Shown in pieces: positions 25,246 through 34,954 of a DNA stretch of 64,000 nt. The translations under genes and the position numbers were made by a program. The notes beneath the pieces were generated by a model, which was not told the DNA's origin, did no database searches, and saw nothing but the letters and a program-made list of their open reading frames with translations. Position 1 is the first letter of the stretch. Each line of letters starts with the position of its first letter. The stretch spans positions 1 to 64,000 of the IMG/VR virus record IMGVR_UViG_3300037235_000042; one strand, 5' to 3'. The DNA comes from a virus.

Positions 25246-25478
25246 ATGATCGGATTCTCTTCCCCTTCCCGGAAGACCTTGTCGCGGAACCTACATTCCC
25301 CAATAACCAAATCCCTCCCGCACGGACAGCTCCCCTTCTGCTTCCGGTACTGCTCCATCAACCGTTCGTTCTTCGCCGTCCACCCAGCCGGGCTGTGCAG
25401 AAAAGTTTCCTGGCCAAATCTCCTTTTCGTCTCGCGAATCTTCTTGGGCGGAGTGAACCTGACGCGATGAGCCCTCAC
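25209..25478 (-). CDS. small basic Cys-containing protein
   Basis: CPC..CSLC; upstream of the fibre gene. Confidence 0.4.
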   Translation of the reverse strand: MRAHRVRFTPPKKIRETKRRFGQETFLHSPAGWTAKNERLMEQYRKQKGSCPCGRDLVIGECRFRDKVFREGEENPIICSLCVKAQRSS

Positions 25479-25662
25479 GAGTGGAAGTTTAGCGAATGGA
25501 ACAGATGGAAGACAGGAGGAATGAAAAATTATGTTGACTTCTTGGTCAGGAATATGACAGGATACAAAACGTCACCGACCAGTAGACCGTACGAAGCGGC
25601 GAGGGGAGGGGAGGTTTTCCAGCCGTCACCCTGGAAGACCTCCCCCGGCGAGTTCAAGTTAA

Positions 25663-25761
25663 ATGATCAATTTTACGAAATCCTCGACTTCCGTTCTATC
25701 AAGCTTAAGTTCAAGCTTGCGACTCAGTCCGTTGTCCTCGCGACTGAGTTATTTATCCTAA
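25663..25761 (+). CDS. leader peptide A (32 aa, Ser/Leu/Tyr-rich) before the Leu/Ser/Tyr tRNA array
   Basis: MINFTKSSTSVLSSLSSSLRLSPLSSRLSYLS*: 13 Ser, 7 Leu, 1 Tyr; ends 9 nt before tRNA-Leu. Confidence 0.75.
   Translation: MINFTKSSTSVLSSLSSSLRLSPLSSRLSYLS
25721..25756 (+). terminator. terminator-like hairpin inside leader A
   Basis: GACTCAGTC / GACTGAGTT stem followed by ATTTAT (weak U tract). Confidence 0.5.
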
Positions 25762-25770
25762 GCACAATTT

Positions 25771-25855
25771 AGGCCCGTGGGCTAATAGGGAATGGCAGAC
25801 CTTTCAGGCTCAAAATCTGAGACCCTTGAGAGTTCAAGTCTCTCCGGGCCTACCA
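25771..25855 (+). tRNA. tRNA-Leu(CAA), short variable arm, enlarged D region
   Basis: AGGCCCG/CGGGCCT-A-CCA; TCAGG CT CAA AA TCTGA; GAGAG TTCAAGT CTCTC. Confidence 0.8.
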
Positions 25856-25861
25856 AGTTTA

Positions 25862-25877
25862 GATCTTTGACAATTTA
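25862..25877 (+). promoter_or_regulatory. rrn boxA-like antitermination element
   Basis: GATCTTTGACAATTTA; shares TCTTTGACAATTTA with the - strand copy near 29774-29790. Confidence 0.6.
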
Positions 25878-25880
25878 AAC

Positions 25881-25971
25881 GGAGAGATGGGTGAACGGGA
25901 AAACCGCCTGTTTGCTAAACAGGAGCTACCCGAAAGGGGGCACGCGAGGTCAGCACTCGCTCTCTCCGCCA
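25881..25971 (+). tRNA. tRNA-Ser(GCT)
   Basis: GGAGAGA/TCTCTCC-G-CCA; CCTGT TT GCT AA ACAGG; long variable arm. Confidence 0.88.
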
Positions 25972-25972
25972 C

Positions 25973-26067
25973 GGTGGGATGGACGAGATGCTAAAGTCAC
26001 CAGTCTTGAAAACTGGCGTGTCCGTCGAAAGGCGGCACCGGGGGTTGAATTCCCTCTCCCATCGCCA
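25973..26067 (+). tRNA. tRNA-Ser(TGA)
   Basis: GGTGGGA/TCCCATC-G-CCA; CCAGT CT TGA AA ACTGG; long variable arm. Confidence 0.9.
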
Positions 26068-26095
26068 AGTTTAAAAATGGTATACTTCCGCCATT

Positions 26096-26584
26096 ATGCC
26101 CATGGCTACACTTGAACTGCAGAGAGCCTATATGGCGGAGTGGTACTTGAGGAAGATCAAGCCCCGTCGCGAGAAATGGATAAAGGAAAATGGTCCTTGT
26201 CGTTGCTGTGGGTCATGGAAGAATTTGGAGGTTGATCACAAAGATCCATCCCAAAAAGTTCATCATCGTGTATGGTCATGGTCTGAATTACGAAGACAGG
26301 AAGAATTAAAAAAGTGTCAGGTTCTTTGTCACGACTGTCATCTTAGAAAGACTGTAGTAGATTTACAAGAGATGGATATCAATGCAGATAAACGCAGAAT
26401 CTGTCCTCCCGGAACGGCTTGGTGCTATCGAGGTAAACATTTCGTAGAAGTCCGGTGGTTCAGCAGTGATGCTGCCAAACACGATGGTTTACAGGACGAA
26501 TGTAGAATATGTCGAAGTAAACGAAGAAGTCCAAATGGTAAGCTCGGGCGTGTTGAGATGTTGGGAATCTCAAGCTGGCCGTAA
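26096..26584 (+). CDS. HNH endonuclease inserted in the tRNA array
   Basis: CRCCGS..NLEVDHKDP..K...ELKKCQVLCHDCH. Confidence 0.88.
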   Translation: MPMATLELQRAYMAEWYLRKIKPRREKWIKENGPCRCCGSWKNLEVDHKDPSQKVHHRVWSWSELRRQEELKKCQVLCHDCHLRKTVVDLQEMDINADKRRICPPGTAWCYRGKHFVEVRWFSSDAAKHDGLQDECRICRSKRRSPNGKLGRVEMLGISSWP

Positions 26585-26634
26585 CCCAGTGACGCTTTGT
26601 CGTCTCGGTCGTTCGATTCGATCCACGCCCACCA
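26546..26634 (+). tRNA. tRNA-Tyr(GTA)
   Basis: GGGCGTG/CACGCCC-A-CCA; GCTGG CC GTA AC CCAGT; variable arm; TTCGATT. Confidence 0.85.
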
Positions 26635-26639
26635 AAAAT

Positions 26640-26716
26640 GCCATCCTGCCGCAACTGGAAGACGGACGTGGTTGAGGTCCACGGTTATGTGAGTTCGAGT
26701 CTCACGGATGGCACCA
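26640..26716 (+). tRNA. tRNA-Leu(GAG), short variable arm
   Basis: GCCATCC/GGATGGC-A-CCA; CGTGG TT GAG GT CCACG. Confidence 0.85.
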
Positions 26717-26726
26717 TTTTTTCAGT

Positions 26727-26803
26727 GCCGGAGTATGCAAATAGGAAAAGCAGCTGAGCTTAGACCTCAGTGTTTGGAGGTTCGATTCCTCTCTCCGGTA
26801 CCA
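26727..26803 (+). tRNA. tRNA-Leu(TAG), short variable arm
   Basis: GCCGGAG/CTCCGGT-A-CCA; CTGAG CT TAG AC CTCAG. Confidence 0.85.
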
Positions 26804-26889
26804 ATTTTCTTGAAAATGATCCTAACTGAACATCTTCCTCCTGTTGAAAACCTGCATCATACCTAGGTCCAACAGGAGGCTTTGCTAAA

Positions 26890-27141
26890 ATGTCAACCTT
26901 GAACGCAATTGCTCTACTGGCGTATCGCGTGCCTGACACGTCGACCGGGAATATATTGCACTTCGCTGTCGGGTTCATCGTCATGGTGTGCGTGCTGGCG
27001 ATTGTGATTATTCTGGTCAAGTGGCTGCTCAGTCTTGGCGGGGTCACAATTCCCCAACCCTTGTTGATCTGTTTGGGGATTCTGATTTTTATCGTCTGTA
27101 TGCTGGCGTTGCTTAGCTGGTCGGGGTATTACAGGTTCTGA
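26890..27141 (+). CDS. small two-TM membrane protein
   Basis: AGGAGG RBS; two long hydrophobic helices. Confidence 0.7.
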   Translation: MSTLNAIALLAYRVPDTSTGNILHFAVGFIVMVCVLAIVIILVKWLLSLGGVTIPQPLLICLGILIFIVCMLALLSWSGYYRF

Positions 27142-27167
27142 GAGCTGAAGCTGAGAACTGAGATGAG

Positions 27168-27197
27168 AAATGGCCCTCGATCTATTGAGGACCATTT
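27168..27197. terminator. hairpin between convergent transcription units, possibly bidirectional terminator
   Basis: AAATGG-C-CCTCGA TCTA TTGAGG-A-CCATTT. Confidence 0.5.
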
Positions 27198-27202
27198 CAA
27201 TC

Positions 27203-27278
27203 TGGTAGCGGGAAGAGGATTTGCACCTCTGTCTCGACCTTATGAGGGTCGCGTATCGTCCTACGCTACTATCCCGCA
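27203..27278 (-). tRNA. tRNA-Met(CAT), initiator-like acceptor stem
   Basis: TGCGGGA/TCCCGCT-A-CCA with 1:72 mismatch; CGACC CT CAT AA GGTCG. Confidence 0.8.
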
Positions 27279-27285
27279 ACACTTG

Positions 27286-27588
27286 TTAAGCCGCGTCCAG
27301 CTTCTTGTTCAACTTCGCCAGTTCAGCGTTGATCTCGGCCTTGCGTTCAACCGTAGTCTTCAAGCTGTCCTTGCGAGCCAGCAGTTCCTTCCGACGCGCT
27401 TCCAGCCGGTCGTGGTTCTTGGCCAGGATCTGACGATCCAAGCTCTTGCTCTGGGCCTCGATCCACTCAGGCAGTTCCACATCCTGTTCGATGTACTCAG
27501 TTACGAGTCCACGAGCGAATGCACGTAGAGAGACCATTTCATCAATGGACGCTCTGTTGTGGTCGAAATTCTTTAGCAACTCCAGCAC
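27286..27588 (-). CDS. coiled-coil hypothetical protein co-transcribed with the TROVE gene
   Basis: AAGGAG RBS, GTG start 16 nt after the TROVE stop. Confidence 0.7.
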   Translation of the reverse strand: MLELLKNFDHNRASIDEMVSLRAFARGLVTEYIEQDVELPEWIEAQSKSLDRQILAKNHDRLEARRKELLARKDSLKTTVERKAEINAELAKLNKKLDAA

Positions 27589-27604
27589 GGGTCAGTTCTC
27601 CTTT

Positions 27605-29119
27605 CTAGGCAACTACGGCCTCTTCGACTGTTTCCACCTTGGTTTTGAACACGTCGTTGAGGGTCAGCAAAGGAAATTCCATAATTTCCTCTAGCAACCC
27701 ATATCGTTGAACTCTCATGGTGGAGACGATATTTGGAAGAGAGTAAAAGTCGACTCCCCCTCTTAAATCGAACTCCTGCAAGTCGATCTCCGCTCGTTTC
27801 ATCGACTGGGCTAGGTCGATGTCGCCTATTCCATGCATCGATGGAGCCAGACGATAGAGATAAACAGGAACTTCTTTACCCAGAGTTGTGCAGTACCGCT
27901 TATACGTGTCTGCGAACCTCGGGGCAGTGTTCTCCTGTGCGTCTGACACGATAGCGATCCCGTCGGCCTCGACGCTTCGGTCGATTGCGTATTGAACGCC
28001 ACAACCAATCGAAGTTCCTGCTCCGTCGGCTGTAATCCATTTCGTGTCTGACTTGATCTCGTCATAGCTCTTTCCAGTAACGTCGAACACGCGTGAAGCA
28101 ACAGAGTCGAAGAAGACCAAAGTGATTTTGTTCTTCACCATCTTCCCTAGTGTTCCTGCTACCAGTCGAGCCGTTTCGATAGCGTTCGACATGGAAGGAG
28201 ATTTGTCTGCCAAGATCAGCCAGTTTCCCTCAATCCCTGCAGCACGTTTGAGTTGTTTCTCCTGCAAGTTCTGGAGCTTCCCCTTCAACCCTTCATCCGA
28301 GATCTGTTCCGCTGCTCGGGTAGTCTTCAGCACGTTCTTGGTCGACTTCGACGCCTTTTCAAGCGCTTCCTCGAACACGCCCCGCAGCGCCGGGTTCGTC
28401 TTGACCCCCAGGCGTTCGAGCATTTTCACATTCGTTACCAACTGCGAAGGCGTCATCTTTTTGATCAACGCCAGCACGAGGTCAGGATCGTTGATCTTCT
28501 TCCCCAACGCGCCCTGAGCGGCCATGAACGGGATGTTGTGCTCAAGGATCGCTCCAGCGGCTTCAAGCGCTGACATATTGATCAACTGAGCAACGATCTC
28601 TCTTTTCGAACCTTCCGGGTGGGCCATCTTCCCGTTGTGTTGGTAGAACAGGATATCCCCTACCCGGTCGGAACGCTTGCAGTGTCCCAAAGCGTAGAGA
28701 TTGGCAAAGGTCTTCCGGTCCTGCGTGACCATTGAGTCCCATTTCTGTGGAACGGCTTCGATCTTCTTCAGATAAGCTTCGATCAACCGGCGCAGGGTAC
28801 GCATTCTTCCGGCTGGACGAAGTTCCAGCGCGAACCGGTAGGCTCGCTCCAGTTCCCGAGGGCCGAGCAGCGCGATATGAGCTAGGGAATTGTCGATGAA
28901 TTCGTCTGGGTAGTTCTTGGCCTTCAGCGACACGACTGGTAACGCCACCTTGGCGTCACGGATCTGGCCTTTCAGCCGGTCCCAAGCTACGAGATGTGCA
29001 AAGAATTCAGGTTCCTGTTCAGCCGCCTTTAGGCCGATGGGAACGTATTCCTGAAGCTTCCCGTGAGGAGACTTCGACAATTCACTTAAAATAGTGTTCT
29101 TGGTAAGTCCTGTTTCCAT
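27605..29119 (-). CDS. TROVE-like helical + vWA domain protein (Ro60/Rsr-like RNA-binding protein)
   Basis: 504 aa, helical N-terminus (EQEPEFFAHL..W...GQIRD), C-terminal vWA with MIDAS LILADKSPSM, GTSIG, IVSDAQEN; YrlA-type RNA upstream. Confidence 0.75.
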   Translation of the reverse strand: METGLTKNTILSELSKSPHGKLQEYVPIGLKAAEQEPEFFAHLVAWDRLKGQIRDAKVALPVVSLKAKNYPDEFIDNSLAHIALLGPRELERAYRFALELRPAGRMRTLRRLIEAYLKKIEAVPQKWDSMVTQDRKTFANLYALGHCKRSDRVGDILFYQHNGKMAHPEGSKREIVAQLINMSALEAAGAILEHNIPFMAAQGALGKKINDPDLVLALIKKMTPSQLVTNVKMLERLGVKTNPALRGVFEEALEKASKSTKNVLKTTRAAEQISDEGLKGKLQNLQEKQLKRAAGIEGNWLILADKSPSMSNAIETARLVAGTLGKMVKNKITLVFFDSVASRVFDVTGKSYDEIKSDTKWITADGAGTSIGCGVQYAIDRSVEADGIAIVSDAQENTAPRFADTYKRYCTTLGKEVPVYLYRLAPSMHGIGDIDLAQSMKRAEIDLQEFDLRGGVDFYSLPNIVSTMRVQRYGLLEEIMEFPLLTLNDVFKTKVETVEEAVVA

Positions 29120-29131
29120 TCTTAACCTCTT

Positions 29132-29188
29132 CCCCGAACGTAAGATTGGCCCGACTAATTCTCTTAATCGGGCCTGTGTACGTCGAAA
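29132..29188 (-). promoter_or_regulatory. 5'-leader hairpin of the TROVE gene carrying the Y-module, overlapping the RBS
   Basis: ACGTA-CACA-GGCCCGATT...AGTCGGGCC-AATCT-TACGT, then GGGGAAGAGG and ATG 29119. Confidence 0.65.
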
Positions 29189-29194
29189 CTTTCA

Positions 29195-29267
29195 TCACTG
29201 GTGGGGTATTGAGTGCCCACATCTCCGATAGCTTGCGCTACCCGGCGTAATCCTTATACGACAGTGA
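29195..29267 (-). ncRNA. tRNA-like element with the anticodon arm replaced by a GCAA-capped hairpin, no CCA
   Basis: TCACTG/CAGTGA stem, D-like GTA..TAC, CCGGGTAGC GCAA GCTATCGG, GTGGG..CCCAC T-like arm. Confidence 0.55.
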
Positions 29268-29274
29268 AGATTTA

Positions 29275-29399
29275 CGGCGTTGGATCGTTTCAGCTATTTT
29301 ACGCGCTCTACCGCTGAGCTACGGTTCTTGCGAACCGGTTGGATTCGAACCAACGACCTCGGTCGCCAAGTGACATGTAAGCTGGAACCGTAAACGCCG
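29275..29399 (-). ncRNA. YrlA-type Y RNA (circularly permuted tRNA mimic)
   Basis: Ends pair (CGGCGTT/AACGCCG); order T arm (GTTGG TTCGAAT CCAAC), acceptor stem closed by GCAA (CGGTTC/GAACCG), D arm (GCTC AGCGGTA GAGC). Confidence 0.85.
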
Positions 29400-29404
29400 A
29401 TCTT

Positions 29405-29529
29405 TGGTGGGGAGTGTTGGATTCGAACCAACATGAGCAGTCTTGAAGGACTGTTGCATGAATCCAGTTTCAGTATGCGATGTGACTCGCAGGATCGCTA
29501 CTGGCGCTTTTCCATTTTGCTAACTCCCC
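29405..29529 (-). ncRNA. CCA-ended tRNA/Y-RNA hybrid (Y-module in the anticodon position)
   Basis: GGGGAGT/ACTCCCC-A-CCA, D arm, T arm GTTGG TTCGAAT CCAAC; insert CCAGTAGC GATCC TGCGA..TCGCA TACT GAAACTGG. Confidence 0.7.
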
Positions 29530-29534
29530 AAACT

Positions 29535-29631
29535 TGGTGGAGGGCTCCGGGTATTAGCCGGAGAAGCATGTAATCTCGCAATGTATGCGCTTTAAAGGCG
29601 CAGGATCGAACGTGATTTTGCAGAGCCCCCC
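29535..29631 (-). ncRNA. CCA-ended D-armless tRNA/Y-RNA hybrid
   Basis: GGGGGGC/GCCCTCC-A-CCA, TCCGG CTAATAC CCGGA; insert GATCC TGCGC CTTTAAA GCGCA TACA...TACATG. Confidence 0.65.
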
Positions 29632-29639
29632 GTAAAATC

Positions 29640-29767
29640 CCCATCGCAGGATCGCTTGAGCTAAGGTCTTGCGACCTCAAGGTTGGAATCGAACCAACAA
29701 CTTTCTGATTACTAGTCAGATGCTCTACCAATTGAGCTACGTGTAAGCCCGAGCCGTGTGCGATAGG
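29640..29767 (-). ncRNA. Y-RNA/tRNA-Thr(AGT) hybrid (Y-module replaces the acceptor stem)
   Basis: CCTATCGCA CACG GCTCGGGCT...AGCTCAAGC GATCC TGCGATGGG enclosing D arm, TCTGA CT AGT AA TCAGA, T arm and a GCAA hairpin; no CCA. Confidence 0.75.
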
Positions 29768-29773
29768 AATATT

Positions 29774-29790
29774 AAATTGTCAAAGAACAA
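29774..29790 (-). promoter_or_regulatory. rrn boxA-like antitermination element
   Basis: TTGTTCTTTGACAATTT between the promoter and the first Y-hybrid. Confidence 0.65.
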
Positions 29791-29803
29791 TGATGACTAC
29801 CAA

Positions 29804-29832
29804 TATGTAGCATCCTTGACAGAGGTTGTCAA
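29804..29832 (-). promoter_or_regulatory. sigma70-type promoter of the Y-RNA/TROVE operon within an inverted repeat
   Basis: TTGACA-17-TACATA with TGn extension; CTTGACA gaggt TGTCAAG palindrome. Confidence 0.55.
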
Positions 29833-29850
29833 GATAAAATTACCTAAAAA

Positions 29851-29925
29851 TGGTCGGGGATGCTGATTCTGCCACAGCGACCCCTCGGTCCCAAGCCGAG
29901 TGCTCTGCTTCTGAGCTAATCCCCG
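29851..29925 (-). tRNA. tRNA-Pro(TGG)
   Basis: CGGGGAT/ATCCCCG-A-CCA; CTCGG CT TGG GA CCGAG; atypical T loop. Confidence 0.85.
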
Positions 29926-29930
29926 AAATT

Positions 29931-30005
29931 TGGTGCGGACTGGAGCGCTCGCATCTCCGTCTGAAGGGCTTCAACCTTCCGCTACTCTGTCTCAGCTAAG
30001 TCCGC
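29931..30005 (-). tRNA. tRNA-Phe(GAA)
   Basis: GCGGACT/AGTCCGC-A-CCA; GAAGG TT GAA GC CCTTC. Confidence 0.82.
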
Positions 30006-30011
30006 AAAAGT

Positions 30012-30087
30012 TGGTGGACCCTGTCGGCTTCGCTCCGACCGCCTCCGGTTTGCAGGACCGGCGCTCTCCTGAATGAGCTAAGAGCCC
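30012..30087 (-). tRNA. tRNA-Ala(TGC)
   Basis: GGGCTCT/AGGGTCC-A-CCA with G3:U70; CCGGT CC TGC AA ACCGG. Confidence 0.88.
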
Positions 30088-30095
30088 ACATAAAA

Positions 30096-30170
30096 TGGGG
30101 TGGCTGACGGACTCTGCCTCCGTATGATCGGGGCCACAACCCGACGCCTTTCTAGTTCGGCCACAGCCAC
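30096..30170 (-). tRNA. tRNA-His(GTG)
   Basis: GTGGCTG/CAGCCAC-C-CCA; TCGGG TT GTG GC CCCGA. Confidence 0.86.
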
Positions 30171-30173
30171 AAT

Positions 30174-30247
30174 TGGAGCAGGCGTTCGGTGTTTGACCGA
30201 AGTCTTACGGGTACAAGCCGTAGGCTCTATCGTTGAGCTACACCTGC
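30174..30247 (-). tRNA. tRNA-Thr(TGT)
   Basis: GCAGGTG/CGCCTGC-T-CCA; TACGG CT TGT AC CCGTA. Confidence 0.85.
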
Positions 30248-30254
30248 AAACTTA

Positions 30255-30328
30255 TGGAGCCGAGGCCGGTAGTCGAAACCGGATCGTATGCTTACCAAGC
30301 ATATGCTCTGCCGTTGAGCTACCAAGGC
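30255..30328 (-). tRNA. tRNA-Thr(GGT)
   Basis: GCCTTGG/CCTCGGC-T-CCA; TATGC TT GGT AA GCATA. Confidence 0.86.
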
Positions 30329-30330
30329 TC

Positions 30331-30405
30331 TGGAGCTAGCGTTCCGACGTGCGCGGAATTCTGCTGGTTACGAATCAGCGGCTCTACTATATGAGCTACG
30401 CTAGC
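30331..30405 (-). tRNA. tRNA-Thr(CGT)
   Basis: GCTAGCG/CGCTAGC-T-CCA; GCTGA TT CGT AA CCAGC. Confidence 0.83.
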
Positions 30406-30410
30406 AAAAC

Positions 30411-30487
30411 TGGAGTACTGGGTAGGACTGTAACCTACTAAGAAAGGCTTTGCAGGCCTCCGCTTCGACATCTTCAGCATCCAGTAC
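30411..30487 (-). tRNA. tRNA-Cys(GCA)
   Basis: GTACTGG/CCAGTAC-T-CCA (U73); GAGGC CT GCA AA GCCTT. Confidence 0.85.
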
Positions 30488-30495
30488 ATCAAAAA

Positions 30496-30569
30496 TGGAG
30501 CGAGTGGGGATACTCGAAATCCCATCTCTGGTTTGGAAGACCAGGGCCTTACCTTTAGACGACACTCGC
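30496..30569 (-). tRNA. tRNA-Gly(TCC)
   Basis: GCGAGTG/CACTCGC-T-CCA; CTGGT CT TCC AA ACCAG. Confidence 0.9.
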
Positions 30570-30570
30570 A

Positions 30571-30647
30571 TGGCGAGAACGACAGGATTCGAACCTGCTT
30601 GTCGGTGGTTTGGAATCACCTGCCCTTCCAATCGGGTCATCGTTCTC
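30571..30647 (-). tRNA. tRNA-Trp(CCA)
   Basis: GAGAACG/CGTTCTC-G-CCA; GGTGA TT CCA AA CCACC; TTCGAAT. Confidence 0.87.
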
Positions 30648-30648
30648 A

Positions 30649-30726
30649 TGGCGGGCTAGACGGAACTCGCATCCGCTTTACTCCTCCGTGACGGGGAGGC
30701 GGCTCGACTCCTTCGCCCTCTAGCCC
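30649..30726 (-). tRNA. tRNA-Asp(GTC)
   Basis: GGGCTAG/CTAGCCC-G-CCA; CCTCC CC GTC AC GGAGG. Confidence 0.85.
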
Positions 30727-30727
30727 A

Positions 30728-30803
30728 TGGCAAGCTCCCAGCGATTCGAACGCTGATTGACAGATTCAGAATCTGTAGTCCTAGCCAATTGGACGAGGAG
30801 CCT
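30728..30803 (-). tRNA. tRNA-Gln(CTG)
   Basis: AGGCTCC/GGAGCTT-G-CCA; ACAGA TT CTG AA TCTGT. Confidence 0.9.
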
Positions 30804-30809
30804 AGTTAA

Positions 30810-30882
30810 TGGCACCGGCGCTGGGAATCGAGCCCAGACCGCAAGCTTCAAAGGCTTACTACGGCACCAGCCGCACGCCGGA
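30810..30882 (-). tRNA. tRNA-Gln(TTG)
   Basis: TCCGGCG/CGCCGGT-G-CCA; TAAGC CT TTG AA GCTTG. Confidence 0.82.
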
Positions 30883-31065
30883 TCAAATTTTCAATGAAAT
30901 CGCCCTTATACACCGGGCGCAAACCACCGCCGACTGATCGACGTCTTTTTCCTTCCGCATCCGGTCGACCCGAGCTTCCCGGACCAGCTGACGATGATCA
31001 CCACCGCGTTCGCAGTAATTGATATCGCCGGGCTCGATGGTCGTGTTGAACAGTTTGTGCTTCAT
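30883..31065 (-). CDS. small Cys/His protein inside the tRNA array
   Basis: MKHKLF...CERGGDH...CARC fills the gap between tRNA-Glu and tRNA-Gln. Confidence 0.5.
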   Translation of the reverse strand: MKHKLFNTTIEPGDINYCERGGDHRQLVREARVDRMRKEKDVDQSAVVCARCIRAISLKI

Positions 31066-31075
31066 TCTTGATCTC

Positions 31076-31152
31076 TGGTGCCGCATGTCGGAGTCCCACC
31101 GACTTTATCCTCCTTGAAAGAGAGGCCGCTCCAGTCCTTTGCGCTATGCGGC
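31076..31152 (-). tRNA. tRNA-Glu(TTC)
   Basis: GCCGCAT/ATGCGGC-A-CCA; CCTCT CT TTC AA GGAGG. Confidence 0.82.
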
Positions 31153-31154
31153 AA

Positions 31155-31229
31155 TGGTAGCGGATGACGGTTACGATCCGTCTTTTTTCGGATGAGAACC
31201 GAATGGCCTAGCCAGTAGCCGAATCCGCC
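31155..31229 (-). tRNA. tRNA-Glu(CTC)
   Basis: GGCGGAT/ATCCGCT-A-CCA; TTCGG TT CTC AT CCGAA. Confidence 0.82.
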
Positions 31230-31247
31230 GTTTAACTATCGAACTCT

Positions 31248-31595
31248 TTATCGAACCACCAAAAACGGAATCGTCACCAGCTGTTTCTCCTTGGTGACCA
31301 TGTCCGTCGCCGAGAACACCAGATTAACCTGCTTCCCGGCTGAGGTTGGCCCGGTCGGCGTCCCCGTTACCACAGCAGATCGAGGATCCTCGGCGACCAA
31401 GGCTAGTCCGGCAGGCATCGGGTCGCTGGTTGAATCCAGATCCCAGCAGATCTGATGCAGGGGCTTATCCAAGGTGTGCAGCCCCGTGTACAAGTAAGCG
31501 GTGAATGGACGGTTGATCCTGGAGATCAGCGCCGGAAAGGGTTGGGCTAATCCTGGTATCTCCTGATCGTTCAAATCCGTAGCGATGTCGGGCAT
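31248..31595 (-). CDS. putative Ig (He_PIG-like) domain protein
   Basis: W.L....MPAGLAL......VVTGTPT...F.ATD; AAGGA RBS. Confidence 0.65.
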   Translation of the reverse strand: MPDIATDLNDQEIPGLAQPFPALISRINRPFTAYLYTGLHTLDKPLHQICWDLDSTSDPMPAGLALVAEDPRSAVVTGTPTGPTSAGKQVNLVFSATDMVTKEKQLVTIPFLVVR

Positions 31596-31631
31596 AGAAT
31601 TCCTTTCAAGTTGGATTAAGTAGATCAGATT

Positions 31632-31664
31632 AAAAAAGCCTTCTAGTTTTTAAGTAGAAGGCTT
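31632..31664 (-). terminator. intrinsic terminator (attenuator C)
   Basis: AAGCCTTCTA-9 nt-TAGAAGGCTTTTTT. Confidence 0.85.
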
Positions 31665-31692
31665 GCCGTTTAAACCCGTCAAATCCTTCCAA

Positions 31693-31794
31693 CTACCCAC
31701 AACCTTCGCCCTGAAACCACGCTTGGTGTAGTCCAAACGGAGTCTTGGTCACAGTCGGGGTCGTAGGTTGATCGGAATGGATTGGTGTTCTCAT
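31693..31794 (-). CDS. leader peptide C (33 aa) before the 15-tRNA array
   Basis: MRTPIHSDQPTTPTVTKTPFGLHQAWFQGEGCG*; lies between a promoter and a terminator; contains all 11 amino acids of the downstream array. Confidence 0.8.
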   Translation of the reverse strand: MRTPIHSDQPTTPTVTKTPFGLHQAWFQGEGCG

Positions 31795-31817
31795 GTTCTG
31801 GTAACTCAACAGGAAGA

Positions 31818-31846
31818 ACTCTACTATTCGGACGAAAACTTGTCAA
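31818..31846 (-). promoter_or_regulatory. sigma70-type promoter for leader C/array C
   Basis: TTGACA-17-TAGAGT. Confidence 0.75.
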
Positions 31847-31940
31847 CAGGAAAATTAAGAGAATTCCTTAACCGGGTAAGGTATCGACGGTATTGTTCCT
31901 TCTTCCGGTTCCACGCAAGCTGATAAGCGGAGGAATTCTT

Positions 31941-32120
31941 ATGCCCTGTTCACAGCAGGATCGCTTCTCAGCATCGGCGGATAAACTTCAAGGGGAACTG
32001 GAATCGCTGGATAACCGGTTGCAACAGTTGCAGAATATGGAAGAGATATTGGAGAAGGTGGAAGGATCACCGATACTGACGAGGACGGAGAGAAGGATGG
32101 AGTTTAACCGAGCGGCTTAG
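31941..32120 (+). CDS. small coiled-coil protein
   Basis: GGAGG RBS before ATG 31941. Confidence 0.55.
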   Translation: MPCSQQDRFSASADKLQGELESLDNRLQQLQNMEEILEKVEGSPILTRTERRMEFNRAA

Positions 32121-32125
32121 AAGAC

Positions 32126-32202
32126 TGGTAGGCCAGGTCGGACTCGAACCGACAACCTCTAGATTCGGAATCTAGCGCGATTTCCTTTTTCGCTTCTGGC
32201 CT
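32126..32202 (-). tRNA. tRNA-Arg(CCG)
   Basis: AGGCCAG/CTGGCCT-A-CCA; CTAGA TT CCG AA TCTAG. Confidence 0.88.
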
Positions 32203-32204
32203 AA

Positions 32205-32280
32205 TGGTGACAGCGTCGAGGCTCGAACTCGAAATTGCTTTTTAGGAGAAAGCTGTGATTTCCGTTTTCACCACGCCGTC
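32205..32280 (-). tRNA. tRNA-Arg(CCT)
   Basis: GACGGCG/CGCTGTC-A-CCA; GCTTT CT CCT AA AAAGC. Confidence 0.88.
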
Positions 32281-32286
32281 GAAATA

Positions 32287-32364
32287 TGGTGCGGGATAGA
32301 GGACTCGAACCTCTTGCCTCGGGTTTCGTAGACCCGCGCTCTGATCCTGATGAGCTAATCCCGC
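32287..32364 (-). tRNA. tRNA-Arg(ACG)
   Basis: GCGGGAT/ATCCCGC-A-CCA; CGGGT CT ACG AA ACCCG. Confidence 0.92.
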
Positions 32365-32369
32365 AAACT

Positions 32370-32445
32370 TGGGGGCTGCTGGCCGACTCGAACGGCCATT
32401 CGAACTTTAGAAGAGTTCGTCCTAATCCTGTTGGATGAAGCAGCC
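32370..32445 (-). tRNA. tRNA-Arg(TCT)
   Basis: GGCTGCT/AGCAGCC-C-CCA; GAACT CT TCT AA AGTTC. Confidence 0.86.
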
Positions 32446-32465
32446 ATAGTTAACCTCTGTAAAAG

Positions 32466-32541
32466 TGGTGGAGGTCATGGGATTCGAACCCACATCGGCT
32501 CGCTTAAAAGGCGAGGGTCTTCACCATTAGACGAAACCTCC
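32466..32541 (-). tRNA. tRNA-Lys(TTT)
   Basis: GGAGGTT/GACCTCC-A-CCA; CTCGC CT TTT AA GCGAG. Confidence 0.9.
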
Positions 32542-32549
32542 AAAACTCT

Positions 32550-32628
32550 TGGTGGGTGCGGCTGGGGTCGAACCAGCATGTTCCTGATTAAGAGTCAGGA
32601 GCGCCTTCCATCACTCCGCCACGCACCC
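32550..32628 (-). tRNA. tRNA-Lys(CTT)
   Basis: GGGTGCG/CGCACCC-A-CCA; CCTGA CT CTT AA TCAGG. Confidence 0.9.
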
Positions 32629-32629
32629 A

Positions 32630-32703
32630 TGGTACTCGCAGGTTGAGTCGAACAACCATCTCGTGCTCATCAGACACGGGCCTTACCGTTAGACGATGCG
32701 AGT
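32630..32703 (-). tRNA. tRNA-Ile(GAT)
   Basis: ACTCGCA/TGCGAGT-A-CCA; CGTGT CT GAT GA GCACG. Confidence 0.86.
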
Positions 32704-32775
32704 GAAACTTGCGGGCCGCCGTTACCCCTGACAGGACTTCAACCACTGTCAGGATTGTTGAACTTTGGCCCAGCT

Positions 32776-32850
32776 TGGTGCGCGGTGAGCGATTCGAACG
32801 CCCGACAAGTAGTTCGTAAAACTACGGCTCTACCCCTGAGCTAACCGCGC
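32776..32850 (-). tRNA. tRNA-Val(TAC)
   Basis: GCGCGGT/ACCGCGC-A-CCA; GTAGT TT TAC GA ACTAC. Confidence 0.9.
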
Positions 32851-32856
32851 AAACTT

Positions 32857-32935
32857 TGGTCCGTCCTCTTGGATTTGAACCAAGGCCCTTCGCCTTATGA
32901 GGGCGCTGCTCTAGGCCGGGCTGAGCTAAGGACGG
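32857..32935 (-). tRNA. tRNA-Met/Ile2(CAT), elongator type
   Basis: CCGTCCT/AGGACGG-A-CCA; GCGCC CT CAT AA GGCGA. Confidence 0.86.
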
Positions 32936-32943
32936 ACGGGAGG

Positions 32944-33126
32944 TTATTGCACCCCCAGTTTATACGACGCCTTCTTGTTCTTCCGTTGACGTTTTTTACC
33001 TTTTTTAAACTTGGCCTTCGCGTAACGGACTTGTGGCGGATATTTTTTGAACACTCGTTCACGATGCGCCTTGCGTTCCGCCGCCTTGCGGAGCTTGGTC
33101 GCTAGTTTCTGTCCTGTTGTACGCAT
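32944..33126 (-). CDS. small Lys/Arg-rich protein inside tRNA array B
   Basis: GAGGTG RBS; about 24 of 60 residues are K/R. Confidence 0.55.
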   Translation of the reverse strand: MRTTGQKLATKLRKAAERKAHRERVFKKYPPQVRYAKAKFKKGKKRQRKNKKASYKLGVQ

Positions 33127-33174
33127 TGACGTTCACCTCTTAGTGAATCGTCATGGCGGACCTCCTTTGGAATT

Positions 33175-33251
33175 TGGCGACACCGGGAGGACTCCAACCT
33201 CCACCCTTCCGCTTAACAGGCGGCTGCTCGGCGCATCTCAGCTTCGGTGCC
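33175..33251 (-). tRNA. tRNA-Asn(GTT)
   Basis: GGCACCG/CGGTGTC-G-CCA; GCCGC CT GTT AA GCGGA. Confidence 0.85.
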
Positions 33252-33283
33252 AAAATATTAAAGGTCCCCATCTCTGAGGACCC
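33252..33283 (-). terminator. intrinsic terminator (attenuator B)
   Basis: GGGTCCTCA GAGA TGGGGACCT TTAATATTTT directly before tRNA-Asn. Confidence 0.75.
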
Positions 33284-33318
33284 TTTTTGTCTCCACTCCA
33301 ACAGTGATAAAGAGACAG

Positions 33319-33390
33319 TCAGGTCCCCAAACGCATATTGCGCTTCACTTTAATGACGCGCCTAGCTGAGTTGGGGTTGATCAATCTCAT
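33319..33390 (-). CDS. leader peptide B (23 aa) before the Asn/Met/Val/Ile/Lys/Arg array
   Basis: MRLINPNSARRVIKVKRNMRLGT*; core RRVIKVKRNMR consists only of array amino acids; ends in TGGGGACCT, identical to the terminator 3' arm. Confidence 0.82.
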   Translation of the reverse strand: MRLINPNSARRVIKVKRNMRLGT

Positions 33391-33399
33391 GGTTTGGGT

Positions 33400-33429
33400 A
33401 GGATACGAAATTGGAGTAGGAGATGTCAA
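33400..33429 (-). promoter_or_regulatory. sigma70-type promoter for leader B/array B
   Basis: TTGACA-18-TATCCT, -10 box ending 9 nt before the leader ATG. Confidence 0.7.
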
Positions 33430-33653
33430 GCTAATTTCCTATACGCATACCCGCCGTTTTTCACGAATTCATGGAAATACTGCCCCGACGACAACGCCTG
33501 CGCGAACCCGGTCACCACATCTCCTGCAACCTGTGAGTAAACATAGGTCGAGCCGTTTTTAAACTGGACGTACAGCTCCATCGCGTCTTCGTCATAAGCG
33601 ACCGCTGCTAAATGCCCGGACGGAACGATTTGTATCTCCTTCAACACTCTCAT
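33426..33653 (-). CDS. KTSC-domain protein
   Basis: SG.LAAVAYD.....LYVQFKNGSTYVYSQV.....ALSSGQYFHEFVK. Confidence 0.9.
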   Translation of the reverse strand: MRVLKEIQIVPSGHLAAVAYDEDAMELYVQFKNGSTYVYSQVAGDVVTGFAQALSSGQYFHEFVKNGGYAYRKLA

Positions 33654-33667
33654 ATACTACATCAGAA

Positions 33668-34525
33668 ATGGCGAAACCGGAAAAATCCGTCCAAGAACTC
33701 CTCTCCGCAGGCGGCAACGGTCCCATCACCACACAATCTCTAGCCAAGCTGCTCGAAGTCGGCCTGCCGGAGATCCAGTCCCTGATCGATAATGAATATC
33801 TGCGCGTAATCTTCAACAAGGAATCCTTTCCTGCAACCGTCGTCGCCTGTCCAGGGGATCGCGGGTTGATCTGGCTCCGGCAGATGTTCCGTCCTTTTTA
33901 TCTTCGGCCTATGATCAAGTTGGTTGAAGTACGCGAGATGATCGAACAGTATAGAAAAAAGGAACCCAAACGCTGGGAGATTGACCGATGGGCAGCCGTT
34001 ATGGGAACGCTGGATTTCTACCGGAAGCTATGCTTCGAACACCGGATTCCAATCTACCACGACGAGGAATTCGGGGAGTTACTGACTATTGAAGGCTTCG
34101 GCTGGTTGCTCCTCCGGCTCCGGACGTCTTGGCAGAAACGAGGGAAAAAGGATCAGGCTTCGCTCTTAGCCTATCTGCTTAACACCCTACCGGATCCGCA
34201 ACTGAAGCCTAAGGATCCTCTGGAAGTCCCGCGTTACTCTGCCCAGTTGTCGAAAGAGATAAACCGGATCGCCCGTTTGCCTATTGAACAACGGACGATC
34301 ATGGCGCTGAATCTCTACCAGTGCTGGAAGGATGCACGGACAGTTCAGGAATGCCTGATCAAGTTGAAGGATCTGGAGAGGTATCTGGAAAAGGATAACG
34401 GTGGTCCAGGAAGCGGACATAGACGTAATCAATACGCGTTCAAATGCGGCCCGAGGGTAGCTGAGGTAATGGAATTCGACCGCAGGATCGAGAGGTTGAA
34501 GGATCAGGTTACGACGGTCGAGTAA
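33668..34525 (+). CDS. hypothetical protein, possible N-terminal HTH
   Basis: 285 aa; ITTQSLAKLLEVG..EIQSLI. Confidence 0.65.
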   Translation: MAKPEKSVQELLSAGGNGPITTQSLAKLLEVGLPEIQSLIDNEYLRVIFNKESFPATVVACPGDRGLIWLRQMFRPFYLRPMIKLVEVREMIEQYRKKEPKRWEIDRWAAVMGTLDFYRKLCFEHRIPIYHDEEFGELLTIEGFGWLLLRLRTSWQKRGKKDQASLLAYLLNTLPDPQLKPKDPLEVPRYSAQLSKEINRIARLPIEQRTIMALNLYQCWKDARTVQECLIKLKDLERYLEKDNGGPGSGHRRNQYAFKCGPRVAEVMEFDRRIERLKDQVTTVE

Positions 34526-34530
34526 ACCGA

Positions 34531-34722
34531 TCAGCAATCCGGCTTGTGGACGATTATTAAAGTGTCGACGTTCGGGATTATCTGCGGTCGACAGTCGCAA
34601 TCCCTTCCGATCTTGTGGCCGTGATGAAACTGAACCCCGTCGATCTCAATCCCTTGTACGACGTCGATCTGCACGACTTCTGCTTCACCGTCGTCGGGGA
34701 TTACCAGCCATTGACGTTTCAT
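34531..34722 (-). CDS. small hypothetical protein (H..CDCRP motif)
   Basis: Operon order; HKIGRDCDCRP...IIVH. Confidence 0.6.
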   Translation of the reverse strand: MKRQWLVIPDDGEAEVVQIDVVQGIEIDGVQFHHGHKIGRDCDCRPQIIPNVDTLIIVHKPDC

Positions 34723-34954
34723 CTTCTTGGGAAGAGTCGATCTCTTTCTTGAGTTCGTTGGCCATTTTTAACAAATGATCAGGTTCTTCGGACTCTAGGA
34801 TTGACATAACCTCGTCGCGGGAGAGATCGATCAGGAATCCTCCGTCGATAGGCGAACTCCCGGCGAGGAAGATCGAACAATGATCGTCGTCGATGGGCTT
34901 GACCACGGCTAGGAGATCAGTGTTGATTAGTAATTCGTCGAGCAGGATGAACAT
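34685..34954 (-). CDS. hypothetical protein
   Basis: Start abuts the upstream stop. Confidence 0.6.
   Translation of the reverse strand: MFILLDELLINTDLLAVVKPIDDDHCSIFLAGSSPIDGGFLIDLSRDEVMSILESEEPDHLLKMANELKKEIDSSQEDETSMAGNPRRR

Follow-up and report, generated by a model that had tools for sequence, protein, structure and literature searches.

Leader ORFs written in the codons of downstream tRNA genes suggest attenuation-like control of three tRNA arrays in an uncultured phage

Introduction

How might a phage that carries tRNA genes for all 20 amino acids adjust their supply to need? The uncultured phage genome studied here (98,271 bp) holds all of its tRNA genes between positions 25771 and 33251, in three arrays, A, B and C, of 6, 10 and 15 genes, and each array is headed by a short ORF. 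A sequence-only reading of the window (a stretch of 64,000 nucleotides, positions 1 to 64,000 of IMG/VR record IMGVR_UViG_3300037235_000042) had proposed that a leader peptide gates each array by sampling the array's own codons. We therefore asked whether leader and array truly correspond, and what such a correspondence could mean for expression of the tRNAs. The core of the proposal is supported by genome statistics and by covariation among related phages. The anatomy of the units, these statistics and the covariation are observations made here; translation of the leaders, termination of transcription and a response to tRNA shortage are inferred.

Organisation of the tRNA locus

ARAGORN called 23 of the tRNA genes, and the remainder were recovered through Rfam, relaxed ARAGORN settings and manual cloverleaves. 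With all calls in place, the 20 amino acids are indeed divided 3+6+11 over arrays A, B and C with no overlap, as had been claimed. By itself this partition is weak evidence, because isoacceptors lie next to each other and a three-way split of such a series is almost automatically free of overlap. The Leu, Ser and Tyr tRNAs of array A are all of the bacterial class II types, with a long variable arm. ORFs also lie inside the arrays (Table 1); the 115-aa ORF that precedes the first tRNA of array C is missing at the equivalent place in the relative L079. Outside the arrays, a solitary tRNA(cat) stands at the Ro60 operon's end, with a terminator following at 27194-27163. Another feature left unmentioned in the sequence-only reading is the acceptor-less Thr(agt)-like element at 29740-29681.

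Table 1. Features of the three tRNA units and their surroundings (window coordinates)
Feature	Position	Strand	Description
Array A candidate promoter	25534-25563	+	Weak; TTGACT, 18 nt, CAGGAT; read from sequence
Strong hairpin	25604-25646	+	Within 94-nt 5' UTR of leader A; ViennaRNA fold; no role assigned
Leader ORF A	25663-25761	+	32 codons; 21/31 Leu/Ser/Tyr; cognate codons for 6/6 array anticodons
11-bp hairpin with U-rich tail	25721-25758	+	In 3' part of leader A; unconvincing as terminator
tRNA array A	25771-26803	+	Leu caa, Ser gct, Ser tga, Tyr gta, Leu gag, Leu tag
HNH-like ORF	26096-26584		Inside array A, between Ser tga and Tyr gta
Solitary tRNA(cat)	27278-27203	-	Outside arrays A, B and C; U1.U72 mismatch; absent from the sequence-only reading
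tRNA array C	31229-29854	-	Glu ctc/ttc, Gln ttg/ctg, Asp gtc, Trp, Gly tcc, Cys, Thr cgt/ggt/tgt, His, Ala, Phe, Pro tgg
CxxC ORF, ~60 aa	~31065-30883	-	Conserved; inside array C
115-aa ORF	31248-31595	-	Between terminator C and first array C tRNA; no function assigned
Predicted intrinsic terminator C	31632-31664	-	10-bp stem, 9-nt loop, six-T run; read from sequence and folds
Predicted antiterminator strand C	31682-31696	-	Spans stop codon; pairs with leader codons 5-12 (1:2) or terminator 5' arm (2:3)
Leader ORF C	31794-31693	-	33 codons from ATG; 26/32 in array C's 11 amino acids, 11/11 present
Array C promoter	31818-31846	-	TTGACA, 17 nt, TAGAGT; consensus scan
tRNA array B	33251-32126	-	Asn gtt, Met/Ile2 cat, Val tac, Ile gat, Lys ctt, Lys ttt, Arg tct/acg/cct/ccg
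60-aa basic ORF	33126-32944	-	Inside array B, between Asn and Met/Ile2 (cat)
Predicted intrinsic terminator B	33250-33285	-	11-pair stem 33285-33260; U-rich tail adjoining tRNA-Asn; consensus scan
Predicted antiterminator strand B	33319-33330	-	Leader's last three codons and stop; near copy of terminator 3' arm; pairs with terminator 5' arm
Leader ORF B	33390-33319	-	23 codons; 15/22 in {Asn, Met, Ile, Val, Lys, Arg}; starts at internal ATG of listed TTG ORF
Array B promoter	33400-33429	-	TTGACA, 18 nt, TATCCT; consensus scan

Leader ORFs match their own arrays

The own-array residue counts reported in the sequence-only reading (21/31 for A, 15/22 for B and 26/32 for C) were reproduced on the sequence, as was its statement that each leader holds every amino acid of its own array. 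When every leader is scored against every array, the matches concentrate on the diagonal (residues matching arrays A/B/C: leader A 21/6/4, leader B 3/15/4, leader C 2/4/26). Among small ORFs of similar length across the 98-kb genome, so few reach the observed match (1/1038 for A, 3/1473 for B and 1/992 for C, the leader itself included) that a chance match can be excluded. The correspondence extends from amino acids to anticodons: cognate codons are found for 6/6, 9/10 and 14/15 array anticodons in leaders A, B and C, against null means of 3.2, 4.4 and 8.3, with only Arg ccg unsampled by leader B and Glu ctc by leader C. Cognate codons make up a fraction of 0.48, 0.64 and 0.72 of the three leaders, compared with 0.17, 0.25 and 0.39 under the null, and out-of-set residues account for 19-32%.

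Could this match nevertheless be a by-product, arising in untranslated ORFs through chance, through local base composition (pyrimidine-rich RNA, for example, yields Ser and Leu) or through constraints on RNA structure? The sequence of leader A is a Ser/Leu stretch of low complexity with hairpins in it, and both ORFs and start codons could be freely chosen at first reading. The leaders are also without Shine-Dalgarno sequences, so their inferred translation would need leaderless or near-leaderless initiation, for which the only support is a spacing of 5-10 nt past the -10 element. The genome-wide ranks already argue against a by-product, and further evidence against it comes from related phages.

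Leaders of related phages track their tRNA blocks

The closest relative sharing the tRNA order is L079, whose Ro60-like protein is 69% identical. Its leaders cannot be aligned with those of this phage, and at each of the three places their bias is of the same kind (15/20, 22/32 and 22/27, with the full 11 amino acids in the last). Likewise, counterparts of leader A that differ in sequence and share its bias are present in L079, L082, L020, L015, L043 and L040. Leader composition also follows changes in block content. Cys is found in the leaders of 4/4 class-II blocks with tRNA-Cys and of 0/3 without it, Asn, Trp, Asp and Glu follow their own tRNA genes between leader types, and in one phage whose block is scrambled (Leu, Asn, Arg, Cys, Ile, Tyr, Glu, Asp) the leader has 22/28 residues in exactly that set. 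Arg, however, recurs in class-II leaders although the block has no Arg tRNA.

Across 27 curated units, which were partly selected by eye, an amino acid is present in the leader in 189/193 cases when its tRNA is in the block and in 127/347 cases otherwise. Summed over the per-unit rows, the leader of the unit offers a cognate codon for 275/290 tRNA genes, and in 8/8 phages with at least two units the true assignment of leaders to blocks outscores every permutation. Synonymous codons are fitted as well: where Thr isoacceptors are divided between two blocks, one leader type has ACR and ACY codons at 17:4 and the other at 2:30 (Fisher p = 2.5e-8), and Gly (p = 0.003) and Arg (p = 5e-4) codons are also split by isoacceptor block. 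The pooled p-values are inflated, because related phages are not independent. In an automated gap test that is blind to composition, adjusted p < 0.05 was reached by 30/154 gaps in sense orientation versus 4/146 in antisense. Concordance in relatives, which had been suggested as a check on the idea, is thus found at the amino-acid and the synonymous-codon level, with a negative antisense control. On this comparative sequence evidence, leaders that differ in sequence and yet track their own tRNA blocks decide the question in favour of a genuine leader-array match. A by-product would have to account for a strand-specific signal, for bias kept in leaders of different sequence, for amino acids and even synonymous codons that move with the tRNA genes, and for the constant 5-10 nt that separates start codon and -10 in the majority of units; we find it barely credible.

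A genuine match need not be regulatory. The small ORFs may encode functional micropeptides, or serve as decoy or priming templates, with a composition that merely co-evolved with the phage tRNA set, and the fairly conserved sequences of type-3 (Trp-block) leaders among relatives would suit such a role. However, same-place leaders of close relatives are unalignable while their composition is kept, every leader has a promoter on one side and a terminator or tRNA on the other, and the match is to the adjacent block rather than to the full tRNA set of the phage, in which all 20 amino acids are represented. We therefore consider a non-regulatory role very improbable.

Promoters, terminators and predicted folding

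For units B and C, the order of promoter, leader, antiterminator/terminator and tRNAs that the sequence-only reading described proved real by motif scan, sequence reading and folds, in the absence of termination data. The start codon of leader B lies 9 nt past the promoter -10. That of leader C lies 23 nt past it, with an alternative in-frame TTG at 31809 only 8 nt past, and in most relatives' units the distance is 5-10 nt. Terminator C is absent from the scan output because the scan takes only loops of 3-8. The two units have leader transcripts with unusually strong folds, at z = -4.1 and -4.5. In B and C, and in the majority of relatives (type-1 units of L020, L015 and L043 among them), a canonical GC hairpin with its U-run is located 24-47 nt past the stop codon, and there is competing pairing at the stop codon. 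In the terminator stems of type-3 leaders, 5/7 pairs carry compensatory changes, and the score observed was matched by 0/500 shuffles.

We modelled the effect of a ribosome by masking its footprint on the transcript up to the terminator loop. In this truncated-transcript model the terminator 5' arm is predicted to be sequestered when the ribosome is inside the leader and freed when it is at the stop codon, with 5'-arm pairing falling from 0.99 to 0.1-0.3 in C, from ~0.8 to 0.33 in B and from 0.99 to 0.55 in unit C of L079. The expected switch was obtained for B, C and most of 12 units, although the models are thermodynamic rather than kinetic; in unit B of L079, ribosome position changed nothing in the folding model. 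Under equilibrium folding, the terminator probability of L079 unit C moved from ~0 to 1 with ribosome position, whereas the terminators of C and of three type-2 relatives formed at any ribosome position, so that only some units switch. Since the terminator of C forms at equilibrium wherever the ribosome stands, its switch would have to be kinetic.

Unit A is less clear. Neither the terminator scan nor folding yielded a convincing intrinsic terminator after leader A, the only candidate being the intra-ORF hairpin, and the same methods gave no convincing terminator for leader A of L079 or L082. Because no terminator is evident, the read-out step of array A in this phage is left unassigned. The stop codon of leader A is 9 nt upstream of tRNA-Leu(caa). 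Its weak candidate promoter was not called by the consensus scan; the -10, 99 nt ahead of the leader start, is similar to the GAG[GCT]AT -10 of type-1 promoters in L015, L020 and L043. Leader A of L079 sits after another tRNA, and no promoter of its own was found.

Such units might indicate leaders that are translated and sense how cognate codons are decoded, but whose read-out is not classical terminator/antiterminator attenuation. Rho could terminate transcription after loading on the Ser/Leu leader RNA, which is rich in C and poor in G, unless a stalled ribosome hides its loading site in the manner of tnaC; alternatively, the ribosome may affect precursor processing or stability near the tRNA 5' end, or the logic may be opposite, with tight ribosome-polymerase coupling suppressing the intra-ORF hairpin. 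This would fit leader A of this phage, L079 and L082, where there is only a short intra-ORF hairpin without a U-tract terminator, where the stop codon is 9-21 nt from a tRNA and where, in L079, the leader follows another tRNA without a promoter; it would also fit the equilibrium folds of several units, which do not switch. It is at odds with the canonical hairpins, the U-runs 24-47 nt past the stop and the competing stop-codon pairing of B, C and most relatives, type-1 units of L020, L015 and L043 among them. We regard a non-classical read-out as unlikely.

Proposed mechanism and comparison with known systems

Classical attenuation remains our preferred reading. In the absence of expression data we think it likely that multiplexed ribosome-mediated attenuation controls the arrays and lets tRNA supply regulate itself; translation, switching and the direction of the response are all inferred. 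Each array would form a transcription unit with a short promoter-proximal ORF at its head, nearly leaderless in most relatives, whose codons are a roster of the downstream tRNAs, with roughly at least one test codon per tRNA gene. In B and C, the terminator 5' arm would have an alternative partner overlapping the last codons and the stop of the leader. If all codons are read fast, the ribosome would reach the stop and cover this segment, the terminator would form, and transcription would end before the tRNAs. Should any cognate tRNA run short, be uncharged or suffer damage, stalling of the ribosome within the leader would let the antiterminator form, and RNA polymerase would enter the array. 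The link to anticodon nucleases drawn in the sequence-only reading is speculative. Leaders A, B and C, with 6, 10 and 15 tRNA genes behind them, may thus act as many-input OR gates. As the products are tRNAs that would speed reading of the leader, the result would be negative autoregulation of tRNA supply by demand. Given leaders written largely in their own tRNAs' codons and a predicted switchable stop in two of the three units, the phage probably makes a block only when ribosomes read those codons slowly.

We found no published account of trp-operon-style leader control for tRNA genes. The enterobacterial multivalent attenuators (thr, sensing Thr and Ile; ilvGMEDA, sensing Ile, Leu and Val; also trp, his, leu and pheA) resemble the phage units, as these are proposed to work, in having a short promoter-proximal ORF rich in regulatory codons, a downstream intrinsic terminator with a competing antiterminator set by ribosome position, and more than one amino acid sensed per leader. 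They differ in regulating biosynthetic enzymes, whereas the phage units would regulate tRNA genes, so that the product itself would close the loop. The phage leaders sample 6-17 tRNA species, mostly through single codons instead of codon runs, fit synonymous codons to individual isoacceptors, look leaderless without a Shine-Dalgarno sequence, and are phage-borne. Leader-peptide attenuation of the decoding machinery is known from pheST-himA, where charged tRNA is sensed through the speed of translating the pheM leader; that attenuator, in contrast to the phage arrays, is cellular, controls a synthetase and senses one amino acid. T-box riboswitches likewise respond to the state of one particular tRNA by switching between terminator and antiterminator upstream of translation-related genes, but they bind uncharged tRNA directly and have no ORF. 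A T-box was rejected here, as an Rfam scan of 24000-35000 at E <= 1 returned only tRNA, YrlA-like and chance hits.

The long tRNA array (trn operon) of Anabaena sp. PCC 7120 is induced under translational stress (PMC8421152, PMC10272220). It is like the phage arrays, as we read them, in being a supernumerary, horizontally mobile set of tRNA genes that is switched on when translation is impaired; its control, with the repressor TrcR acting on tandem direct repeats at the -10 and TSS, is unlike that proposed for the phage leaders (PMC8421152, PMC10272220). The papers on this operon describe no leader ORF, and the words 'leader' and 'attenuat' are absent from them (PMC8421152, PMC10272220).

A putative Ro60/Y RNA module

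Two Y-RNA-like elements, which the sequence-only reading did not mention, are also found in the region. One match to YrlA spans the full model length (E = 5e-8) and scores under the gathering threshold (42.5 vs 69). A Ro60 fold (TROVE + vWA) beside a tRNA-like Y RNA was our criterion for a Ro60/Y RNA module, and the structure model together with the YrlA match satisfies it here. The model of the Ro60-like protein has a pLDDT of 81.6, and its top PDB matches, at TM ~0.6, are a TROVE-domain crystal structure and the Ro60 proteins of a Thermus phage, Xenopus, human and Deinococcus.

Organisation of the tRNA genes

The virus record (98,271 bp, of which the window is the first 64 kb) has direct terminal repeats and is judged complete. 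A megablast search with a 24 kb query found no near relative among deposited phage genomes. Every tRNA gene of the genome lies within positions 25771-33251. ARAGORN alone called 23 of them, and Rfam, relaxed ARAGORN and hand-checked cloverleaves added Asn, Glu(ttc), Asp, Cys, Thr(cgt), His, Ala, Pro and a second tRNA(cat). Together, these calls bear out the three arrays described in the sequence-only reading, of which array A holds exactly the bacterial class II tRNAs. It had also been pointed out that the arrays divide the 20 amino acids among themselves (3+6+11). This partition is real but is no independent evidence for the model, being nearly automatic because isoacceptors are adjacent; taken alone, it was therefore given zero weight and discarded as support.

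Features of the tRNA region in this phage
Feature	Position	Strand	Remarks
Hairpin upstream of leader A	25604-25646	+	about 18 bp, very stable, no U-tract
Leader A	25663-25761	+	small ORF confirmed
Array A	25771-26803	+	Leu x3, Ser x2, Tyr
162-aa ORF	26096-26584	+	HNH-like motifs
Terminator after solitary tRNA(cat)	27194-27163		
Solitary tRNA(cat)	27203-27278	-	U1.U72 mismatch atop the acceptor stem
Ro60-like ORF, 504 aa	27605-29119	-	beside array C; fold search
Elements just upstream of the Ro60-like gene	29271-29529 and 29681-29740	-	
Array C	31229-29854	-	15 tRNAs, 11 amino acids
ORF of about 60 aa	30883-31065	-	two CxxC-like pairs
Terminator C	31664-31632		10-bp stem, 9-nt loop, six T
Leader C	31794-31693	-	small ORF confirmed
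59-aa ORF	~31944-32120	+	coiled-coil-like
Array B	33251-32126	-	Asn, Met/Ile2, Val, Ile, Lys x2, Arg x4
60-aa ORF	32944-33126	-	40% Lys+Arg
Terminator B	33285-33260		U-rich tail abuts tRNA-Asn
Leader B	33390-33319	-	small ORF confirmed

Leader composition in this phage

Each array is headed by a small ORF, its leader, proposed to sense the array's own codons. The residue counts first reported for the leaders proved exact when recounted on the sequence: matches to arrays A, B and C number 21, 6 and 4 in leader A, 3, 15 and 4 in leader B, and 2, 4 and 26 in leader C, and each leader contains the complete amino-acid set of its own array and of no other. As a genome null we took all small ORFs of similar length, with every start codon, on both strands of the whole genome. 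The observed fraction of codons in set (belonging to the adjacent array) was reached, leader included, by only 1 of 1038 such ORFs for A, 3 of 1473 for B and 1 of 992 for C.

The match extends to individual codons. Under strict wobble rules, a cognate codon is present in the own leader for 6/6 anticodons of array A, 9/10 of B and 14/15 of C (null means 3.2, 4.4 and 8.3), leaving only Glu(ctc) and Arg(ccg) unsampled. Cognate codons make up 48%, 64% and 72% of leaders A, B and C, against 17%, 25% and 39% in the null. Synonymous codons are spread across the isoacceptors of the array, with both Lys, both Gln and all four Thr codons in use, and the Arg isoacceptors are sampled by AGA, AGG and CGY codons.

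Leaders follow tRNA grouping in related phages

The Ro60-like protein encoded beside array C belongs to a family of over 800 members, many of them on ~100-kb contigs, and profile searches with it supplied 65 viral and 26 metagenomic comparison loci. By tblastn against a phage collection its sole match was an uncultured 595-kb phage at 28% identity, and thus no cultured relative emerged; a single-sequence search of viral contigs gave no match. Of the relatives for which only the protein is available, the closest have 75% and 68% identity, their contigs lying outside the comparison. Locus L079 (69% identity) has the same tRNA order as this phage, with small ORFs at the same three places. These cannot be aligned with the leaders of this phage and are biased alike, matching Leu/Ser/Tyr at 15/20 codons, set B at 22/32 and set C at 22/27, with all 11 amino acids of set C present.

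In more distant phages the tRNAs are grouped otherwise, and leader composition tracks the grouping. Where a class-II block includes tRNA-Cys, its leader also contains Cys (L015, L020, L043 and L040), and the class-II units of this phage, L079 and L082 have neither. Where a block starts with Asn and ends with Arg(acg), Asn and Arg are present in the leader, Trp is missing and Asp or Glu occurs no more than once. Leaders of Trp-headed blocks with Thr and Gly contain all three of these amino acids. The scrambled block of L017 (Leu, Asn, Arg, Cys, Ile, Tyr, Glu, Asp) follows a leader with 22/28 codons in exactly that set.

The sequence-only reading had called for a concordance check on small ORFs 5' of tRNAs in related phages, and its expectation held. 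In a composition-blind test, the best small ORF in each gap of at least 90 nt before a tRNA was scored against prefixes of the downstream tRNAs, with calibration on 4,834 small ORFs elsewhere in the loci. Adjusted p was below 0.05 for 30 of 154 sense-strand gaps and below 0.01 for 11, compared to 4 of 146 and 2, respectively, when the same gaps were read antisense. We also curated 27 units from 17 loci, defined by coordinates. Summed over the per-unit rows, in-set codons account for 491 of 662 leader codons (74%) and strictly cognate ones for 404 (61%), and 275 of 290 tRNA genes are sampled by a codon of their own leader. An amino acid occurs in the leader in 189/193 cases when its tRNA is in the block, and in 127/347 otherwise. 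These units were partly picked by eye, a weakness that neither the blind test nor the within-phage permutations share. In all eight phages with two or three units, the true assignment of leaders to blocks outscored every permutation by a wide margin; for this phage the score was 62, against at most 35. As the phages are related, pooled p-values overstate independence.

The sharpest test is the split of synonymous codons in phages where one block carries Thr(cgt, tgt), Gly(gcc) and Arg(acg) and a second carries Thr(ggt), Gly(tcc) and Arg(tct, cct, ccg). Here, the two leaders choose codons to fit their own block: the two leader types have ACR to ACY ratios of 17:4 and 2:30 for Thr, GGY to GGR ratios of 11:4 and 5:18 for Gly, and ratios of CGH to AGR plus CGG of 9:2 and 5:22 for Arg. 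Not every tRNA unit of the lineage is attenuator-controlled, since a tRNA(cat)/Asp/Glu group of the relatives has no leader ORF; perfect TTGACA promoters lie 7-53 nt before the tRNA (L020 at 2652, L024 at 1095, L028 at 1142).

Promoters, terminators and the predicted switch

For B and C, the proposed order of promoter, leader, antiterminator/terminator and tRNAs was recovered by consensus scan, sequence inspection and folding, the switching itself resting on models alone. The scan found just two strong minus-strand promoters in the region, both perfect TTGACA, and they sit exactly 5' of leaders B and C. It also called terminator B; terminator C, evident from sequence and folds, was missed only because of the scan's loop limit. 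In L079, too, units B and C combine a TTGACA promoter with a GC hairpin and its U-run. Terminators of Trp-block leaders covary, with compensatory changes in 5 of 7 pairs, counted on the terminator helix only; the antiterminator was excluded, its alignment register shifting between sequences.

Leader transcripts B and C fold much better than shuffled sequences (z = -4.1 and -4.5). In B, the last three leader codons and the stop form a near copy of the terminator 3' arm and thus compete for the 5' arm. In C, the segment across the stop codon has two alternative partners, leader codons 5-12 and the terminator 5' arm. This is the classical 1:2, 2:3, 3:4 layout of alternative pairings. We modelled the ribosome by folding the transcript up to the terminator loop with 28 nt kept single-stranded at successive positions. 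In this truncated-transcript model, a ribosome within the leader leaves the 5' arm sequestered and one at the leader end frees it, sequestration falling from 0.99 to 0.1-0.3 in C and from 0.8 to 0.33 in B; about 10 of 12 units from relatives showed similar trends. Full-length equilibrium folding produced a switch for B and for three units of relatives (L079-C, L043-1 and L083-3). It produced none for C or for the type-2 leader units, where terminators always win, so that the choice would be kinetic if the model is right. We therefore rely on truncated-transcript folding, itself a model.

A promoter is recognisable in 14 units, and in 12 of these the -10 hexamer is followed by the start codon at a distance of 5-10 nt; a Shine-Dalgarno sequence is absent in all. 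This spacing and the missing Shine-Dalgarno suggest that leader mRNAs may be leaderless or nearly so, the translation start being inferred. Leader C and its L079 counterpart have an in-frame TTG at 8 nt and an ATG at 23-29 nt.

Array A has no such clear read-out. Leader A ends 9 nt 5' of tRNA-Leu(caa), and the sole structures seen are two hairpins within the ORF, a palindromic one of 6 bp and one of 11 bp whose U-tail is poor, neither called as a terminator by the consensus scan. A weak candidate promoter (TTGACT, 18 nt, CAGGAT) is placed 99 nt upstream, on the far side of a strong hairpin in what would be the 5' UTR. The leader-A homologue of L079 directly follows tRNA(cat) without a promoter, and that of L082 has a promoter-like site 9 nt upstream; both homologues lack a terminator. 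In the more distant L020, L015 and L043, the class-II leaders are followed by canonical terminators. The sensing part of A is conserved and its read-out is undetermined in this sub-lineage, possible candidates being Rho-dependent termination, control of processing, and a suppression of the internal hairpin that depends on coupling.

A candidate demand-controlled tRNA supply

Debate on phage tRNAs concerns why they are carried: codon bias, host shut-off or escape from anticodon nucleases. How phages regulate their dozens of tRNAs is, to our knowledge, essentially unknown. Genome-wide ranks, codon sampling and covariation in relatives confirm what had been observed in this phage and support its interpretation, in the absence of any experimental test. 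Our data support ribosome-mediated attenuation as the probable control of the arrays; translation of the leaders and the response to tRNA shortage are inferred. Functionally, the system resembles multivalent ribosome-mediated attenuators (thr, ilv) and is not a T-box riboswitch. Of five attenuator-defining features, the analysis covered four: three are present in B and C, and the ribosome-dependent switch is supported by models only.

On balance, we think it likely, though far from settled, that uncultured ~100-kb phages of an entire lineage operate their tRNA genes as demand-controlled modules, in which any single slow-decoding event turns on exactly the replacement block. At the head of each module would stand a leaderless test ORF that samples every downstream tRNA with roughly one codon, down to the choice among synonymous codons. 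As modelled, the sensor would react to slow decoding of any cause, be it codon-usage mismatch, starvation or host destruction of tRNA; the link to host anticodon nucleases suggested in the sequence-only reading is speculative. The lineage, recognisable by a Ro60-like gene set within its tRNA region, is probably soil-dwelling.

No account of leader peptides or attenuators before tRNA arrays, tRNA operons or phage tRNAs was found in the full-text literature, subscription-only papers not being covered. Among published regulated arrays of supernumerary tRNAs, the nearest is the trn operon of Anabaena, where control is exerted through promoter repeats and the TrcR repressor; the two papers on it mention neither a leader nor attenuation (PMC8421152, PMC10272220). 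If true, our reading would carry ribosome-mediated attenuation beyond amino-acid operons to RNA genes, as the first leader-peptide attenuator known for them and the most multiplexed known, and tRNA supply would be under homeostatic control at the level of individual blocks. It would also provide a natural many-input translational sensor, usable as a reporter of tRNA-pool state, and a sequence rule (the leader roster equals the downstream tRNAs) for annotating transcription units of uncultured phages. Such a rule would also account for the fact that isoacceptor families stay together in one array.

Neighbouring genes and small ORFs

By fold, the 504-aa ORF is a homologue of Ro60 (TROVE + vWA), with TM ~0.6 to phage, bacterial and human Ro60; Pfam and PDB sequence profiles gave only a weak vWA match and did not recognise Ro60. 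Its gene lies within or beside tRNA arrays in the loci where arrays were found. RtcB is absent from the genome. Just upstream of the gene are a YrlA-like Y RNA, full-length but sub-threshold, a tRNA-like element that carries an insert of 50 nt, and an acceptor-less Thr(agt)-like element. The stretch 3' of array C, which the sequence-only reading did not mention, comprises a promoter-like site, the Thr(agt)-like element, two Y-RNA-like elements, the Ro60-like gene, a 100-aa ORF, the solitary tRNA(cat) at the end of the Ro60 operon and a terminator. The L079 counterpart of this tRNA lies immediately before leader A.

Between terminator C and the first tRNA, this phage has a 115-aa ORF that is absent in the closest relative; a single-sequence search of viral contigs gave one weak match, without tRNAs. 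The 59-aa ORF between B and C (~31944-32120), with a GGAGG ribosome-binding site, is convergent with array B, and no terminator was seen at the end of that array. The 60-aa Lys/Arg-rich ORF that separates tRNA-Asn from tRNA-Met in array B stops 8 nt short of the tRNA and has no Pfam match; as a second leader it was ruled out, having a strong Shine-Dalgarno, no terminator, only 28/59 codons in set and no equivalent in L079. In array C, the ORF with CxxC-like pairs in the Glu(ttc)-Gln(ttg) gap (6908-7090 in L079) may encode a small zinc-ribbon protein co-transcribed with the tRNAs. The 162-aa ORF inside array A overlaps the start of tRNA-Tyr, and many such insertions break the arrays of relatives, with inter-tRNA gaps of 0.3-2 kb.
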